This document shows, piece after piece, positions 42,423-61,247 of a stretch of DNA of 64,000 nucleotides. The notes under the pieces were generated by a model. That model had not been told where the DNA came from and did no database searches. It saw nothing but the letters and a program-made list of their open reading frames with translations. The translations under genes and the position numbers were made by a program. The stretch covers positions 416,001 to 480,000 of the forward strand of contig CAVYTA010000006.1 in the NCBI GenBank assembly GCA_963771355.1. The letters run 5' to 3'. Each line of letters begins with the position of its first letter. The stretch's first letter is position 1. The stretch comes from an uncultured Candidatus Rokubacteria bacterium. GTDB taxonomy: Bacteria > Methylomirabilota > Methylomirabilia > Rokubacteriales > CSP1-6.

Positions 42423-44324
42423 TCACCGTCCCGCGGGGATCTTGTCGGCGACCCAGTCCAGACCGAGATCGGCCAGCTTGGCGCGCGTCGGATAACCGGT
42501 GGCGGGATCGCAGCCGGCCATCTGGTAGTAGCTTGTTCGCGCGCGCTCGAACTCCTCGCCCGTCAGCGCCACGCCCGCGGTGGGCCCGGTACCGGCGAGC
42601 GGCTTGAAGAGCTTCTTCGGCAGCACGTCCGAGTCCTTGCCGATGCCCTCGCGCGCGTTCAGCGCGCGGAGCAGGTGTATGCGCCGCTCGCCCACCTGGA
42701 TCAGCTCCTCGATGGTGGCGTCCCAGCCGGTGCCCGACTTGACCAGCTCCACCGTCTCGGACGGGCCGTAGAGCTGCCACGAGGGCCCCCACACGAACTG
42801 GCAGAGCCCGAGGGTGTCGAGCGCAGAGTAGAAGGCCTGCGAGCGATAGGCGAAGCGGACCTTGGCGTCGGAGAGGTCGCGAAGGTCGAGGTTCTCGGCC
42901 ACTCCGATCTCGCCCAAGCGCCGGTGCTGGAGGCTGCCGGGCTTGGCCCGCAGCGCGGAGTCGTGCTCGGAGGACTGATGGTCGGCGCCGAAGGGGTTCA
43001 CCGCATAGATCAGGCCGAGAGAGCGCTTGTGCTGGGGCATGTGGGCCGGCAGCTCCTGGCCCTTGACGGTGACGGTGAGATCCACCGCCGCGGGGCCCAG
43101 GCTCTGCGCCGCACGGAGGCTGCCCTCGGCGAGGAGATCGCCCACCCCGCGGCGGAGCGCGATGGCCTCGATGGCCCGGAGCACGGACTGGCCGTCGCCG
43201 TAGGCGAGGCCGAGCCCCTGGTCGTCCAGCAGGCCTTTCTCCTTGGCTTCGATGGCCCACGCGATGGTGGCGCCGGCCGAGATGGTGTCCATCCCGTACA
43301 TGTTGGCGTCGGCGGAGGCCTTGGAGAGGAGCTTGAGATCACCCACGCCGCACATGGAGCCGAAGAAGGTGAGGGTTTCGTACTCGGGGCCGCCGTAGAT
43401 CGGATCCACCGTGAGGTCCGGGTCCCGGACCTCCACCGTCCGCTTGCACTTCACCACGCAGGCGTAGCAGGTGTCGCGCTCCTTGAGAATGGTCTTGGCG
43501 AGCACGGCGCCGTCGATGTCCTTGGACTGGGCGAAGGTGCCCTCGGTGTAGTTCCGCGTGGGCTGGCCGCCCATCTTGTCCTGGATGGCGAGCACGCCGG
43601 CGGTGCCGTACTGGCCGAACCACACGATGCCGGGATTCGCCTCCTGCAGCTCCTTCAGCCGCTTCACCAGCCCGCGGAATTCCTCCTGGTGCACCGGCTT
43701 CGGAGGCTTGGTGCCGCGCACCACCACCGCCTTGAGCCGCTTGGCGCCCATCACCGCGCCGAGACCCGTCCGGCCGTTGGCGCGATTGACCATGTTCATG
43801 ATGGCGGCGAAGCGCACGCGGTTCTCGCCCGCCGGGCCGATCTGGGCCACCTCGGCCTTCGGGTCGCCGACCTCATCCTTGAGGAGCTGGTCCACCTCGG
43901 CGGTGACCTTGCCCCAGAGATGTCCGGCCGGTCGCAGCTCCGCATGCCCGTCGTTCAGATAGAGATACACCGGCTGCTTCGACTCGCCCGTGAACACGAT
44001 GGCGTCGGCGCCTGCCGCCCGCATCTCGGCGGGAAAGAAGCCGCCGCACTGGCTGTCGCCGATGGCGCCGGTGAGGGGCGAGCGGGCGCAGGCGGTCATG
44101 CGACTCTGCCCGGAGATGGCCAGCCCGGTGAGCGGGCTCACCGCCATCACCAGGACATTGTCTGGCCCGAGCGGGTCGGCCCCGGCGGGCATGGACTGCA
44201 GCACGAGATAGGCGGCGAGCGCGCTGCCACCGGGATATTTCCGGTACACGTCCTCGGGGAGGATCTTGGTCTCGATGGTGCCGCGGCTGAGGTCGACGTG
44301 GTATACGGTGGCGGTCAGTGACAC
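42423..44324 (-). CDS. Aldehyde:ferredoxin oxidoreductase family (W/Mo) protein
   Basis: GRTGLGAVMGAKRLKA, CYACVVKC, GPEYET and GMDTIS motifs; GTG start inferred. Confidence 0.92.
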   Translation of the reverse strand: MSLTATVYHVDLSRGTIETKILPEDVYRKYPGGSALAAYLVLQSMPAGADPLGPDNVLVMAVSPLTGLAISGQSRMTACARSPLTGAIGDSQCGGFFPAEMRAAGADAIVFTGESKQPVYLYLNDGHAELRPAGHLWGKVTAEVDQLLKDEVGDPKAEVAQIGPAGENRVRFAAIMNMVNRANGRTGLGAVMGAKRLKAVVVRGTKPPKPVHQEEFRGLVKRLKELQEANPGIVWFGQYGTAGVLAIQDKMGGQPTRNYTEGTFAQSKDIDGAVLAKTILKERDTCYACVVKCKRTVEVRDPDLTVDPIYGGPEYETLTFFGSMCGVGDLKLLSKASADANMYGMDTISAGATIAWAIEAKEKGLLDDQGLGLAYGDGQSVLRAIEAIALRRGVGDLLAEGSLRAAQSLGPAAVDLTVTVKGQELPAHMPQHKRSLGLIYAVNPFGADHQSSEHDSALRAKPGSLQHRRLGEIGVAENLDLRDLSDAKVRFAYRSQAFYSALDTLGLCQFVWGPSWQLYGPSETVELVKSGTGWDATIEELIQVGERRIHLLRALNAREGIGKDSDVLPKKLFKPLAGTGPTAGVALTGEEFERARTSYYQMAGCDPATGYPTRAKLADLGLDWVADKIPAGR

Positions 44325-44427
44325 TCCGAATCTCCTCTCTCCAGCGGCGCGCATCGGCGGCCGTTCCTGGCATGCCAACCCTGGGGTGGATAGTACCCCG
44401 CGGCGGCGCCGAAGGGCAGGGGGATTG

Positions 44428-44724
44428 ATGGGCGGCCGTCGCCTCGCCGCGCGGATGCTGCTGGTGGGCTCGCTCGTCGCCGCGCCGGCGAGCGCTGCGT
44501 CGGCGCAGACGCCCGACCGGCCGCCTCCACGGCCGGGAATCGCGCCGGAGACGCCCTGGGCTTGCCCGGCCAGCCATCCGATCAAGGGCTATCTCACCGA
44601 CGAATCGGGGCGGGTCTATCACCGGCCGGGATCGCGCTACTACGAGGAGACGAGCCCGGACCGCTGCTACGCCACCGAGGAGGAGGCGAGAGACGATGGC
44701 ACTCGCCGCGCGCCCGACGGCTAG
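44428..44724 (+). CDS. Small secreted protein with HPIKG..YH.PG..YY domain
   Basis: Signal peptide; CPASHPIKG..GRVYHRPGSRYY..RCYATEEEA pattern. Confidence 0.65.
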   Translation: MGGRRLAARMLLVGSLVAAPASAASAQTPDRPPPRPGIAPETPWACPASHPIKGYLTDESGRVYHRPGSRYYEETSPDRCYATEEEARDDGTRRAPDG

Positions 44725-51742: not shown

Positions 51743-51772
51743 TTTCACATCTGCACGGTCGCGGTGTCTCAT
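51743..51772 (+). promoter_or_regulatory. Putative ECF-type promoter, copy 1 (TTTCAC-N13-CGGTGTCTCAT)
   Basis: Same boxes and spacing as the copy at 53317-53346; lies 10 nt upstream of the sigma ATG. Confidence 0.6.
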
Positions 51773-51782
51773 GAGTAGAGTG

Positions 51783-52310
51783 ATGGCTGACGAGGCATTC
51801 GAGATCGTGGTGGCCGCCCACCACGCCGAGATACACCGGTACCTCGTGCGCGTGACTCGACGCCCGGGGGATGCCGATGATCTGTCTCAGGAGACCTTCA
51901 TCCGGGCCTTCCGTGCGCACTCGGCCTTGCCGGCAGGGTCGAATGTCCGCGCCTGGCTCTTCACCATCGCGACGAATCTGTGTCGAAACTACTGGCGCTC
52001 GGAGTCGCGGCGTCGCCGGGCTTACGAGGCCGCCGGCGAGACCGCGGCGCACCACGAAGAAGCCGAAGGGGAGGGCGCGATGGTCATGGAGCAGGCGAGT
52101 GAGGAGATCGGGCGCATCGTCGCCGCGCTGCCGCTCCGCCAGCGACTGGCCTTCACGCTCCGCAAGGTCCACGAGCTCGAGTACGAGGCCATCGGCCGGA
52201 GCCTCGACTGCTCTCCCGATACCGCGCGGGCGCATGTCTTCCAGGCGCTGCGCAAGATCCGACGCGGGCTCGATGCCCCGGCCGGGGCCCGCACGGAGTC
52301 CAAGCGATGA
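51783..52310 (+). CDS. ECF RNA polymerase sigma factor
   Basis: Region 2 DADDLSQETFIRA..RAWLFTIATNLCRN; region 4 LPLRQRLAF..YEAIG..TARAHVFQA. Confidence 0.92.
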   Translation: MADEAFEIVVAAHHAEIHRYLVRVTRRPGDADDLSQETFIRAFRAHSALPAGSNVRAWLFTIATNLCRNYWRSESRRRRAYEAAGETAAHHEEAEGEGAMVMEQASEEIGRIVAALPLRQRLAFTLRKVHELEYEAIGRSLDCSPDTARAHVFQALRKIRRGLDAPAGARTESKR

Positions 52311-53272
52311 CCAGAGAGCCCCGATCCTGTCGTGAGATCGAGCCGGACCTGATCGCGGTGGCGACCGCCGAGGCGCCGCCCGCCGCCGCCCGCCGCGTGG
52401 AGAGCCACGTGGCGGAGTGCGCGTCCTGCCGGAGCGAGCTCGCGCAGTATCAGACGGTCGACGGGCTCGTGACCGCGTACCGAGACACGCGCGCGCTCGA
52501 GGCCGACCCCACGCTGGCCCGCGCGCAGCTCGAGAGCCGGCTCGCGGACCTGCGCAGCCGCATCATGCGCTACGGCGTGTTCGACTCTCCGCTCGGGCCC
52601 ATCGCCATCGGCGTCTCGGAGCACGGGGTGTCCATGGTGGAGTACGTACGCCCGGCCGAGCGGACGGGCGGCGGGTTGGCGCGGCGGGCGGGCGGAGAAG
52701 CGGTGGAGGACCCCCGCCGGACGGAAGGGCTCTATCGCGAGCTGGCCGACTATCTCGACGGGCGGCGCACGCGGCTGGACTGGCCGCTCGATCTCCGGCG
52801 GACCCGGAGCGACTTCCAGCGGCGCGTCCTCGAGGCCACCGCGCGTCTTCCCTATGGGGCGGTGACCTCCTATGCGGGCATCGCGCGCGAGATCGGCGCG
52901 CCGCGCGCGACCCGCGCGGTGGCCCAGGCGCTCCGCCACAATCCACTCCCCATCGTGGTCCCGTGCCACCGCGTGATCGGCAGCAGCGGCGACCTCACCG
53001 GCTATGCGGGGACGCGCATCGGGCTCAAGCGAGATCTGCTGGCGGTGGAAGGCGTTCACACCATGCCCGGTCATGGCGACTTTCACATCGAGCGGCGCGC
53101 CGTCTACTACAAGTACCTCGATGGGGGTGAGTATTGCCTGCCGACCTGTGGTGGCATTCTCGAGAAGCCACTGGGTGACTTCACGGTATTCGGCTCGCGC
53201 GACCGCGCGGAAGCGGTGGGGCTCCAGCCCTGCACGGACTGCCGGCCCGATCTGCATCCGCTCCCCGCCTGA
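52307..53272 (+). CDS. Fusion: ZAS (zf-HC2) anti-sigma domain + O6-methylguanine-DNA methyltransferase + Ada-type Zn-binding domain
   Basis: HVAECASC; SPLG..FQRRV..RAVAQAL.HNP..PCHRVI; YCLPTC..AEAVGLQPCTDCRP. Confidence 0.85.
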   Translation: MTREPRSCREIEPDLIAVATAEAPPAAARRVESHVAECASCRSELAQYQTVDGLVTAYRDTRALEADPTLARAQLESRLADLRSRIMRYGVFDSPLGPIAIGVSEHGVSMVEYVRPAERTGGGLARRAGGEAVEDPRRTEGLYRELADYLDGRRTRLDWPLDLRRTRSDFQRRVLEATARLPYGAVTSYAGIAREIGAPRATRAVAQALRHNPLPIVVPCHRVIGSSGDLTGYAGTRIGLKRDLLAVEGVHTMPGHGDFHIERRAVYYKYLDGGEYCLPTCGGILEKPLGDFTVFGSRDRAEAVGLQPCTDCRPDLHPLPA

Positions 53273-53316: not shown

Positions 53317-53346
53317 TTTCACGTTGCCTGCGCGCCGGTGTCTCAT
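53317..53346 (+). promoter_or_regulatory. Putative ECF-type promoter, copy 2 (TTTCAC-N13-CGGTGTCTCAT)
   Basis: Matches 51743-51772; precedes SD AAAGGAG and ATG 53375. Confidence 0.6.
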
Positions 53347-53374: not shown

Positions 53375-53785
53375 ATGCACATCATCGGGACACTCATCGT
53401 GGTGGCGATACCCCTGGTCGGAATCTTCGGACTCCTGTGGCTCAGCGAGCGCTGGCAGGCGCGCCGCGAGGTCGGGCGGCACCTCCAGATCGCGGTCACC
53501 GACGCGGTGCACGGGGCGCTCGGCGCGGTGGCGGCACCGGTAGTGACGCGGCGCCCGGGCGGCGGCTGGCGGATCCAGATGCGGGTCACGCCGGGCCGGT
53601 CCGATCTGGCCGCGGCGCTCGTGCGTGTGACGGAAGATGTGATGGACCGTGCGACGGGCGAGATGCGGCGCCCCTTCGAGATCGTCCTGCTCCCGACGGA
53701 GGGGATCGGCGCCGCCGGGCACGGTCCGCGCGCCCTGGGCCAACGCAGCAAGAGCGCCGCGCCGCTGGCCGCGGCCGCGCGCTGA
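53375..53785 (+). CDS. Hypothetical protein with N-terminal TM helix
   Basis: SD AAAGGAG; hydrophobic N-terminus MHIIGTLIVVAIPLVGIFGLLWL. Confidence 0.65.
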   Translation: MHIIGTLIVVAIPLVGIFGLLWLSERWQARREVGRHLQIAVTDAVHGALGAVAAPVVTRRPGGGWRIQMRVTPGRSDLAAALVRVTEDVMDRATGEMRRPFEIVLLPTEGIGAAGHGPRALGQRSKSAAPLAAAAR

Positions 53786-53797
53786 GAGGAGGCCGCC

Positions 53798-53959
53798 ATG
53801 CTCAGCTACTACGCGCTGGAGAAAGTCGTGGAGATGCGGCTCGCCGAGCTTCGTGAGGAGGCGGCGCGGGCCCGGGCGGTGGCGTCTCCCGAGCCGGCTG
53901 CTCGGCCGGCTCCCGCCCGACCCCTTCGCTGGTTCCAGGTCCAGATCTTCGGTCGTTGA
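53798..53959 (+). CDS. Small protein, 53 aa (not in the ORF track)
   Basis: AGGAGG SD; translates as MLSYYALEKVVEMRLAELREEAARARAVASPEPAARPAPARPLRWFQVQIFGR. Confidence 0.6.
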   Translation: MLSYYALEKVVEMRLAELREEAARARAVASPEPAARPAPARPLRWFQVQIFGR

Positions 53960-60023: not shown

Positions 60024-60332
60024 ATTCTCTCGGCTCCACCCGATTCCTCCGAAACGAGCTGGCAGCTGGCCGAGGGCTGTCGTCTGCACTGGAAGGCCTG
60101 GGACGACGAGTTCGTGATCTTCGACGAAGGCTCGGGTGATACGCACCTGCTCGACCCGCTGGCCGCCGAGTTCCTGAAGGTCCTCGAAGAGTCGCCGGGG
60201 GAGGTGCCCGGCCTCGCCCGTCGGCTCGGGGCGCGGCTCGATCTTGCGCGCGACGCCGATCTCACCCGGCGCGTGCGCGAGCTGGTGGAGCGGTTCGTCG
60301 CCGTCGGCCTGGTGGAAGCCGCGCATCCGTGA
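60024..60332 (+). CDS. PqqD family / RiPP recognition element protein (HPr-rel-A system type); start uncertain
   Basis: In-frame WQLAEGCRLHWKAWDDEFVIFDEGSGDTHLLDPLAAEFL..RELVERFVAVGLV; frame open from 59979, first canonical start only at 60114. Confidence 0.8.
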   Translation: MLSAPPDSSETSWQLAEGCRLHWKAWDDEFVIFDEGSGDTHLLDPLAAEFLKVLEESPGEVPGLARRLGARLDLARDADLTRRVRELVERFVAVGLVEAAHP

Positions 60333-61247
60333 AGCTGGGTGCGCTGACCCTCCCCGAGCTCACCGCGCGGCTCGCGCGCGGCGGCCTCGACATGGACACC
60401 GGGCCGTTCGTGGTGCGCATCGAGACGGAGATCCCCGCGCTCGCCGAGGAGATCCATCTCCTCTACGGCGATTTCTCCGTGGACGAGGGCGGTGGCCTGG
60501 CCGACTTCCACGTGTCGGTCCGCCGCCCGGCGGGACCGCTCGGGTTACGCCGGTGGTGGCGTCAACAGGTCAAGGTCTATCTCGATGAGGCGCGTCCCTT
60601 CGAGCCCCTGCCCATTGACATGGCGGTGCCGGTGCTGGAGTGGAGCATCAACTGGTGCGCCGCCACCCAGGCCAATCAGTACGTGATGATCCACGCCGCG
60701 GTGCTCGAGCGCGACCGGCGGGTCCTCGTGTTGCCCGGCGTCAGCGGAGCTGGCAAGAGCACGTTGTGCGCGGGCCTGGCCCTGCGAGGCTGGCGGCTCT
60801 TCTCGGACGAGTTCGCCCTGATTCGTCCGGCCGACGGGCAGGTAGATCCATGGCCGCGGCCCATCAGCCTCAAGAACGACTCCATCGAGGTGATCCGACG
60901 ATGGGCTCCCGACTCGCGCCTGAGCACGCTCGTGCCCAATACCAAGAAGGGCACGATGGCGCACCTGCGCCCGCCCGCCGGGAGTGTCGAGCGGGTGGGG
61001 GAGCCGGCGATGCCGGCGTGGATCGTGTTCCCCACCTTCGCGCGCGAGGCGGCGCCGCAGCTCGACTCGCCTGCCGCGCGCCCGCGCCTTCTTCAAGCTC
61101 GCTGACTGCTCGTTCAACTACGAGTCCCTCGGCCTTCGAGGCTTCACCACGCTTTCGCGTATGATCGACGGGTGCGACGCCTACGAGTTCACCTACTCGA
61201 GCCTCGAGGACGCCCAGAGCCTGCTCGGCGCGCTGCCGCTGCCCTAG
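60329..61247 (+). CDS. HPr kinase-related kinase (HprK-related kinase A type); apparent +1 frameshift at ~61064
   Basis: IHAAVL, Walker A GVSGAGKST, FSDEFAL and PRPISLKN; C-terminus RARAFFKLADCSFNY..YSSLEDA in the next frame. Confidence 0.85.

Follow-up and report, generated by a model that had tools for sequence, protein, structure and literature searches.

The textbook bacterial response to alkylation damage runs through Ada. The locus described here raises the question of whether a suicide repair enzyme can also control transcription by holding and releasing a sigma factor. It lies in a window of 64,000 nucleotides, the whole stretch of DNA analysed (G000:C6:416001-480000), from an uncultured soil bacterium (Candidatus Rokubacteria) whose genome is 99.8% complete. 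In our best reading, to which we give an even chance, self-alkylation of an O6-alkylguanine alkyltransferase (MGMT) domain destabilises the putative anti-sigma fusion in which it resides and frees the ECF sigma encoded by the overlapping gene.

An ECF sigma gene and its three-domain partner

The ECF sigma gene (51783..52310, + strand) encodes 175 residues made up of sigma2 and sigma4 with no extension: Pfam finds Sigma70_r2 (PF04542) and r4_2 (PF08281) only, with no sigma3, and the NCBIfam model TIGR02937 scores above its cut-off. Judging from the position of the predicted promoter, the true start may be the GTG at 51780, and the mRNA is probably leaderless. The sigma ORF (51783-52310) overlaps the fusion ORF (52307-53272, 321 aa) through an ATGA, and the fusion is soluble, with a top 19-residue hydropathy of 0.92 and no membrane helix. 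Its Pfam matches are zf-HC2 at residues 8-42 (22.0 bits, just under the cut-off of 22.2), Methyltransf_1N at 87-163, DNA_binding_1 at 169-250 (E 2e-29) and Ada_Zn_binding at 274-315 (18.3 bits, below the cut-off of 23). Among the best 120 of 2,971 homologues, C8, H34, C38, C41, C220, C277, C281, C309 and C312 are conserved in 119-120/120, and Y189, R203, N212, PCHR, K241 and E248 are invariant (120/120). Pfam, hydropathy and conservation thus bear out what a sequence-only reading had noticed, namely a sigma gene overlapping a soluble protein with a ZAS domain, a methyltransferase with intact PCHR and an Ada-like zinc domain. Its contrast with Ada is also confirmed, as the zinc domain is C-terminal, in reversed order, and the fusion has no HTH_AraC match. 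An AlphaFold model of the fusion (pLDDT 85.7, pTM 0.71) gives strong matches to alkyltransferases and weak ones to N-Ada. One record in the plasmid collection spans at least 80% of the query.

Residues 1-86 (52307..52564, +) are predicted to form a four-helix domain of the ZAS anti-sigma type (model pLDDT 89). ZAS domains follow the spacing rule C/H-x23-26 before HxxxCxxC, and the full motif is present as C8, H34, C38 and C41 in 119/120 (best 120 of 2,971 homologues). HX3CX2C is the motif of ZAS anti-sigma factors in the available text of PMC3177212. Comparisons of fold point in the same direction at low scores: a profile search of the domain against the PDB places DdvA, RsiW, RslA and RsrA among 14 weak matches, anti-sigma chains (MucA, RslA, DdvA and RsiW) fill the first 11 Foldseek rows (weak, E above 1), and the VIA list, weak as well, is headed by RslA and MucA (best Z 6.3 for RslA, rmsd 4.7 over 62 residues). 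Conservation among homologues is strong both at the ZAS residues and in the fourth helix. Taken together, motif, fold and position make an anti-sigma role likely.

Such a domain might itself be the sensor. In this reading, which we regard as quite unlikely, the ZAS cysteines, like those of RsrA or RshA, respond to electrophiles, oxidation of thiols or loss of zinc, and the MGMT and Ada-like domains are co-expressed cargo. The invariance of C8, H34, C38 and C41 is in keeping with it, and the thiol-transferase-like DinB targets described below would suit thiol stress (PMC10693628, consulted in part). In the portion of PMC3177212 available, the redox sensitivity of RsrA is tied to acidic residues before the first Cys and a Leu after the second. 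This pattern (acidic-acidic-C..C-Leu) was sought among the best 120 of 2,971 homologues and found in 0/120; an Arg follows the last ZAS Cys in 114 of them, and a Leu occupies position 42 in one. A further argument against ZAS sensing is that ECF-MGMT pairs occur with no ZAS at all, in type B and in loci of Actinomycetota and Chloroflexota, so that the pairing is independent of ZAS chemistry.

The central part of the fusion (residues 87-250; 52565..53056, +) is a complete O6-alkylguanine alkyltransferase by its Pfam and TIGR00589 matches and a PDB match to 4bhb (E 7e-29), with support from Foldseek and VIA. It has the two-domain Ogt/MGMT fold and, matched by motif, the PCHR with C220, the Tyr (Y189), the Arg finger (R203), the Asn hinge (N212), the Lys (K241) and the Glu (E248). 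Lys and Glu have established roles in O6-alkylguanine alkyltransferases. The roles of Tyr, Arg and Asn are given in PMC10814553, available in part. With its catalytic set intact, the domain is predicted to be an enzyme competent for methyl transfer, and PCHR is retained by 42/43 distant ZAS-MGMT representatives.

The C-terminal part (residues ~258-321; 53078..53272, +) is an Ada-like Cys4 zinc domain followed by a short tail ending LPA. Alignment to N-Ada (1adn) equates C277, C281, C309 and C312 with Ada C38, C42, C69 and C72, and Foldseek matches the domain to 1u8b (probability 0.96, E 0.16). In N-Ada, T34, R43, R45 and R71 contact DNA. These four positions hold G, G, I and D in the fusion clade (G282, I284 and D311 at R43, R45 and R71), and the domain has a mean net charge of -1.8 in the best 120 of 2,971 homologues versus +5.2 in ZAS-less relatives (n=13). 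The proposal that this domain accepts methyl groups from phosphotriesters therefore becomes doubtful for the fusion clade: the four Cys are kept, but the basic residues are absent and the domain is net acidic. Phosphotriester sensing is plausible in the type B proteins, which have a basic Ada-like domain. Our literature search on N-Ada DNA-contact residues and direct alkylation of Ada found no usable paper.

The tail carries a signal of its own. Proteins end in (A/P/S)A in 70/120 of the best 120 of 2,971 homologues versus 5% of 4,043 background ORFs, and in AA in 12/13 ZAS-less relatives versus 2% of background, counts in which relatives share tails by kinship. The signal is not universal, as proteins of genus g23 end in EVN and ZAS-MGMT tails vary. 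Ala-ending tails of this kind can serve as ClpX degrons, and clpX is present in the genome, a hint that proteolysis is involved.

Distribution and relatives of the pair

A near full-length fusion occurs in 32/41 related genomes, with one more split across two contigs, and the N-terminal domain scores strongly in 76/121 genomes of the phylum, counts in which related genomes are non-independent samples. The system is found in about three-quarters of sampled Rokubacteriales-type genomes. Two genomes carry two fusion copies, G016 (C119:22439 and C167:11713) and G063 (C8 and C24). The sigma gene lies upstream of the fusion in 47/48 loci, some of them duplicated, and the 4-nt overlap is found in 42 of the 48; the others comprise one short gap, one contig end and four frameshifted cases from two long-read genomes. 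The frameshifts fall in the 5′ part of the fusion gene, near residues 61 and 40 (L001:4001-4967 and L007:4001-4946), and may be assembly errors.

The same loci bear on whether there is a damage-triggered switch at all. The N-terminal domain might serve a structural purpose, or be an anti-sigma that is weak or vestigial; the activity of the sigma would then answer to some other input, such as the membrane protein or the 53-aa ORF described below, and the fusion would simply be one of its targets. The sub-threshold zf-HC2 score, the weak fold scores, the two conserved uncharacterised genes after the operon and the frameshifts of the two long-read genomes are all compatible with this reading. We nonetheless consider it very unlikely, given the strong conservation of the ZAS residues and fourth helix and the overlap retained in 42/48 loci, and since frameshifts in long-read assemblies may be errors.

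A canonical N-Ada was sought in the 99.8% complete genome, and none was found. Among the 41 related genomes, seven match PF02805 over its full length in the manner of canonical N-Ada, as judged by PF02805 alone, and six of the seven also carry the fusion. This coexistence in 6/41 genomes means that there is no strict replacement of Ada.

More distant relatives are modular. Among the best 150 representatives, clustered at 50%, we count 30 ZAS-MGMT, 12 ZAS-MGMT-Ada and 14 MGMT-Ada proteins, many of the others being fragments or plain MGMT. For metagenome loci, we took the best 80 of at least 597 and counted the 60 whose upstream sequence reaches at least 1 kb, leaving out 20 short ones. An ECF gene lies directly upstream in 5/5 ZAS-MGMT-Ada, 3/3 ZAS-MGMT, 10/10 MGMT-Ada, 14/40 plain MGMT and 0/2 N-Ada-type loci, counts in which the query and the sigma profile favour ECF-MGMT pairs and ‘plain’ MGMT includes broken frames. 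With an ECF upstream across all MGMT architectures, MGMT is the constant partner of the ECF-linked relatives, and the ZAS and Ada-like domains are optional.

These counts also weigh on the idea that the C-terminal Cys4-Zn site is the trigger. Here C277 would be alkylated from methylphosphotriesters or, more likely in this clade, by small electrophiles; loss of the fold would expose the tail and free the sigma, and MGMT would be mainly a repair output. Retention of the four Cys in 119-120/120 (best 120 of 2,971 homologues), the alignment of C277 with Ada C38, the upstream ECF at every MGMT-Ada (10/10) and ZAS-MGMT-Ada (5/5) locus with room among the best 80 of at least 597, the basic domain kept by ZAS-less type B proteins (mean +5.2, n=13) and a detoxification-like regulon are consistent with such a trigger. 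However, the domain is absent from the ECF-linked ZAS-MGMT (3/3 loci) and plain MGMT (14/40) of the same set, and G, G, I and D at Ada T34, R43, R45 and R71, with a mean charge of -1.8, argue against repair of the DNA backbone. We judge a C-terminal trigger to be unlikely.

In our tree, the fusion-linked (type A) sigmas form a clade of their own (support 99/99). The type B sigmas make up a separate clade (100/100), and MGMT proteins are thus the partners of two distinct sigma clades. Sigmas linked to MGMT in Actinomycetota and Chloroflexota join type A in a loose grouping (85/89, not starred, with long-branch warnings).

A type B pair, an ECF gene with an MGMT-Ada gene lacking the ZAS, is found in the same genome (L046:3642-5329; G000:C5 ~930000-931330). 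Its protein has a basic Ada-like domain and an AA tail. A different conserved motif (TTCCACCC...CGTATA) lies upstream of type B pairs, recognised by eye in the majority of L028-L040, and the only other site of this motif in the genome lies upstream of an MFS-like transporter, named by eye (C5:441246, - strand). In loci of Gaiellales-type, Frankiaceae and Chloroflexota genomes (L019-L023, L025 and L026), an ECF gene is directly upstream of an MGMT that has only an N-terminal helical extension, which may be a reduced anti-sigma helix.

Predicted promoter and regulon

The genome's top PWM site lies at 51743..51771 (+) as a predicted autoregulatory promoter of the ECF sigma (TTTCAC, a 13-nt spacer and CGGTGTCTCA), and the second PWM site of the genome is a further copy at 53317..53345 (+). 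The motif, TTTCAC-N13-CGG(T/G)GTCTCA, thus stands before the sigma gene and before the downstream membrane-protein gene. In 18/18 loci, one copy precedes the sigma gene, another follows the fusion and there are no others, a count that is not independent because the pattern was drawn from these same loci; in further loci, it lies within 120 nt of the sigma gene in 27/29. Across the phylum, the motif occurs in 72/76 genomes with the N-terminal domain (208 sites) versus 13/45 without it (18 sites), and a reversed-pattern control gave 7 matches. Among the 13, one genome has its sigma at the end of a contig; four fairly complete genomes (G050, G066, G118 and G121) hold 1-2 sites without having the sigma. 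We infer that the motif is the promoter of the fusion-linked sigma. Scanning the locus for a sigma-70 promoter and a + strand terminator found neither. Contigs of RNA runs span parts of the locus and carry no start, strand or level.

The second copy precedes a small membrane-protein gene that is a predicted regulon member (53375..53785, +), encoding 136 aa with an N-terminal membrane helix (hydropathy 2.71). A Pfam search of this protein gave no match, and an atlas search returned hypothetical Methylomirabilota clusters only; by eye, similar genes lie downstream of the fusion in most of the 32 loci. It is followed by a 53-aa ORF of no known family, called from sequence (53798..53959, +), which is probably co-transcribed. 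The atlas contains its exact sequence, with matches below 0.9, and ORFs resembling it by eye are present at L003, L004, L012, L080, L086 and L090. In some loci, the pair at 53375-53959 is extended by more short membrane peptides.

Of the genome's four strict motif sites, one is at the sigma gene and one at the membrane-protein gene; the two distal ones both precede DinB genes, although the genome has only 22 DinB_2 matches in all. We collected 40 further stretches around motif sites, with 42 sites, 6 of them before the sigma gene and 36 distal. The distal sites precede 22 DinB-superfamily, 4 DUF2652 and 2 BNR-repeat genes, 2 genes of an uncharacterised family, and 1 each of an alpha/beta hydrolase, an arginase-family gene and a small peptide, with 3 intragenic or unclear (30 calls by Pfam, 6 by eye). 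A separate set of 31 sites comprises 11 before sigma genes, 8 before membrane-protein genes, 4 before DinB, 4 before DUF2652 and 1 before EamA, and 3 others (9 by Pfam). DUF2652 proteins with a conserved CxCxxC-type stretch recur behind the motif (L067:1529-2182, L077:854-1495, L111, L112, L137 and L141).

By eye, the DinB targets fall into four subfamilies, and several score with DUF1706, DinB_2 or MDMPI_N. We aligned 19 from three subfamilies (~20-27% alike); all keep the His triad H46, H134 and H138, and their closest solved structure is YfiT. The DinB superfamily includes thiol S-transferases, as well as ClbS, which is without the metal motif (PMC10693628, in the part available). A reading of the targets as ClbS-like cyclopropane hydrolases was set aside because the His triad is kept and the PDB match is YfiT, not ClbS. 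Genomes without the N-terminal domain yielded three DinB orthologues, too few to weigh, two without a site and one with a degenerate site. A hydrolase gene lies directly behind the fusion in 5/32 loci, four of the five from one genus; the one searched matches a fluoroacetate dehalogenase (E 6e-96), and probable epoxide hydrolases likewise (~E 1e-95).

The alkA-like, ogt, ATL-like and type B genes of the genome were checked and have no motif site upstream. No DNA-repair gene was seen behind any of the distal sites that we examined, and the output would thus suit small-molecule electrophiles no less than DNA damage. In place of alkA or ogt, the predicted regulon holds DinB/dehalogenase-type enzymes and the operon itself. 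These enzymes are likely to detoxify alkylating chemicals. The promoter motif also hints at what four DinB subfamilies and DUF2652 probably do.

A putative switch among known systems

In the mechanism that we favour, sigma and fusion would be made one-to-one, and the ZAS domain would bind the sigma and keep it inactive, as its fold and position suggest. Alkyl transfer to C220 would then destabilise the fusion; C220 is proposed as the trigger because MGMT is the sole domain common to all ECF-linked relatives, and three other cysteine sites could equally serve. Alkylation is described as destabilising human MGMT in the accessible part of PMC10814553. The destabilised fusion would be unfolded or degraded, perhaps with the Ala-ending tail as a ClpX-type degron, and the freed sigma would transcribe its own operon, the small membrane protein and the DinB/dehalogenase-type enzymes. 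The output would be more of the fusion, the sole DNA-repair gene found in the predicted regulon, together with detoxification of small alkylating electrophiles. Such a loop would be self-limiting, because fresh unalkylated fusion, in 1:1 ratio with the sigma, would re-bind it. Comparative evidence thus supports an anti-sigma-type domain, an intact alkyltransferase, tight coupling to one ECF clade, predicted autoregulation and the lack of a canonical N-Ada in this genome. On three points the switch initially proposed needs revision: phosphotriester acceptance is doubtful, the predicted regulon is without alkA or ogt, and the ECF-MGMT pairing is already listed.

That pairing is represented by ECF122, a group in the 2021 classification of Casas-Pastor et al. 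that, as given in the part of PMC8999054 available, lies beside a 6-O-methylguanine DNA methyltransferase, with no anti-sigma listed and the mechanism listed as unknown. The neighbouring MGMT gene is shared with our locus, but here the MGMT is fused both to a ZAS-type, putatively anti-sigma domain and to an Ada-like zinc domain, and we can predict a promoter and a regulon. ECF122 is not named in the main text of PMC7826278 or in the preprint, as far as the available portions go. ECF203 was considered as the sigma group and dropped, being described with TetR neighbours in the part of the preprint consulted. No characterised ECF/anti-sigma/MGMT system was found in the literature covered, with most subscription papers outside the search, and Ogt and YlaD are treated separately in the available text of PMC1976550. 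The gene pairing itself is already catalogued as ECF122 in the available part of PMC8999054; new here are the promoter-like motif and the predicted regulon.

Like E. coli Ada, as described in the portion of PMC10814553 available, the system combines a suicide alkyltransferase and a Cys4-Zn site in one regulator, with autoregulation (predicted here). Unlike Ada, the fusion has the reverse order, no AraC HTH and no basic N-Ada residues; its output would be sigma release, whereas that of Ada is activation by a methylated DNA binder; and its predicted regulon is without alkA, alkB or aidB-type genes. The Ada model PRK15435 scores the fusion at 83 against a cut-off of 345, so that the system is Ada-like in logic and falls outside the Ada family.

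The cytoplasmic HxxxCxxC anti-sigma domain encoded behind its ECF recalls RsrA/RshA (ECF12), ChrR (ECF11) and ECF270/271, and ChrR also has a fused C-terminal domain (PMC3177212 and PMC8999054, both in part). In contrast to these soluble ZAS factors, the RsrA redox signature is absent here and the fused domains are those of DNA-repair enzymes. DinB genes under a dedicated stress regulator have parallels among the DinB/YfiT thiol S-transferases, ClbS (DUF1706) and the mycobacterial SiwR-controlled dinB; however, the targets here keep the His triad that ClbS reportedly lacks and thus resemble YfiT/BstA, and the regulator is an ECF whereas SiwR is a WYL activator (PMC10693628, available text).

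A broader reading would be a widespread modular anti-sigma class with a suicide alkyltransferase as its sensor, in which consumption of the enzyme frees an ECF sigma that rebuilds the pool and induces thiol-transferase/dehalogenase-type detoxification. The result would be an Ada-free adaptive response recruited by at least two ECF lineages, with two examples in this genome, and it would account for the orphan ECF122 group; we put this wider picture at somewhat under an even chance. If true, a suicide repair enzyme that gates a sigma/anti-sigma switch would give bacteria a second logic beside that of Ada, and ECFs so far catalogued only as neighbours of an MGMT gene would gain the regulator that they lack.

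Two other ORFs of the window may be mentioned. The ORF at 60329-61105 resembles, by eye, what we take to be an HprK-related kinase as in exosortase loci, and a small secreted-looking ORF at 44266-44724 has a Cys-containing end domain (WACPASHPIKG...).
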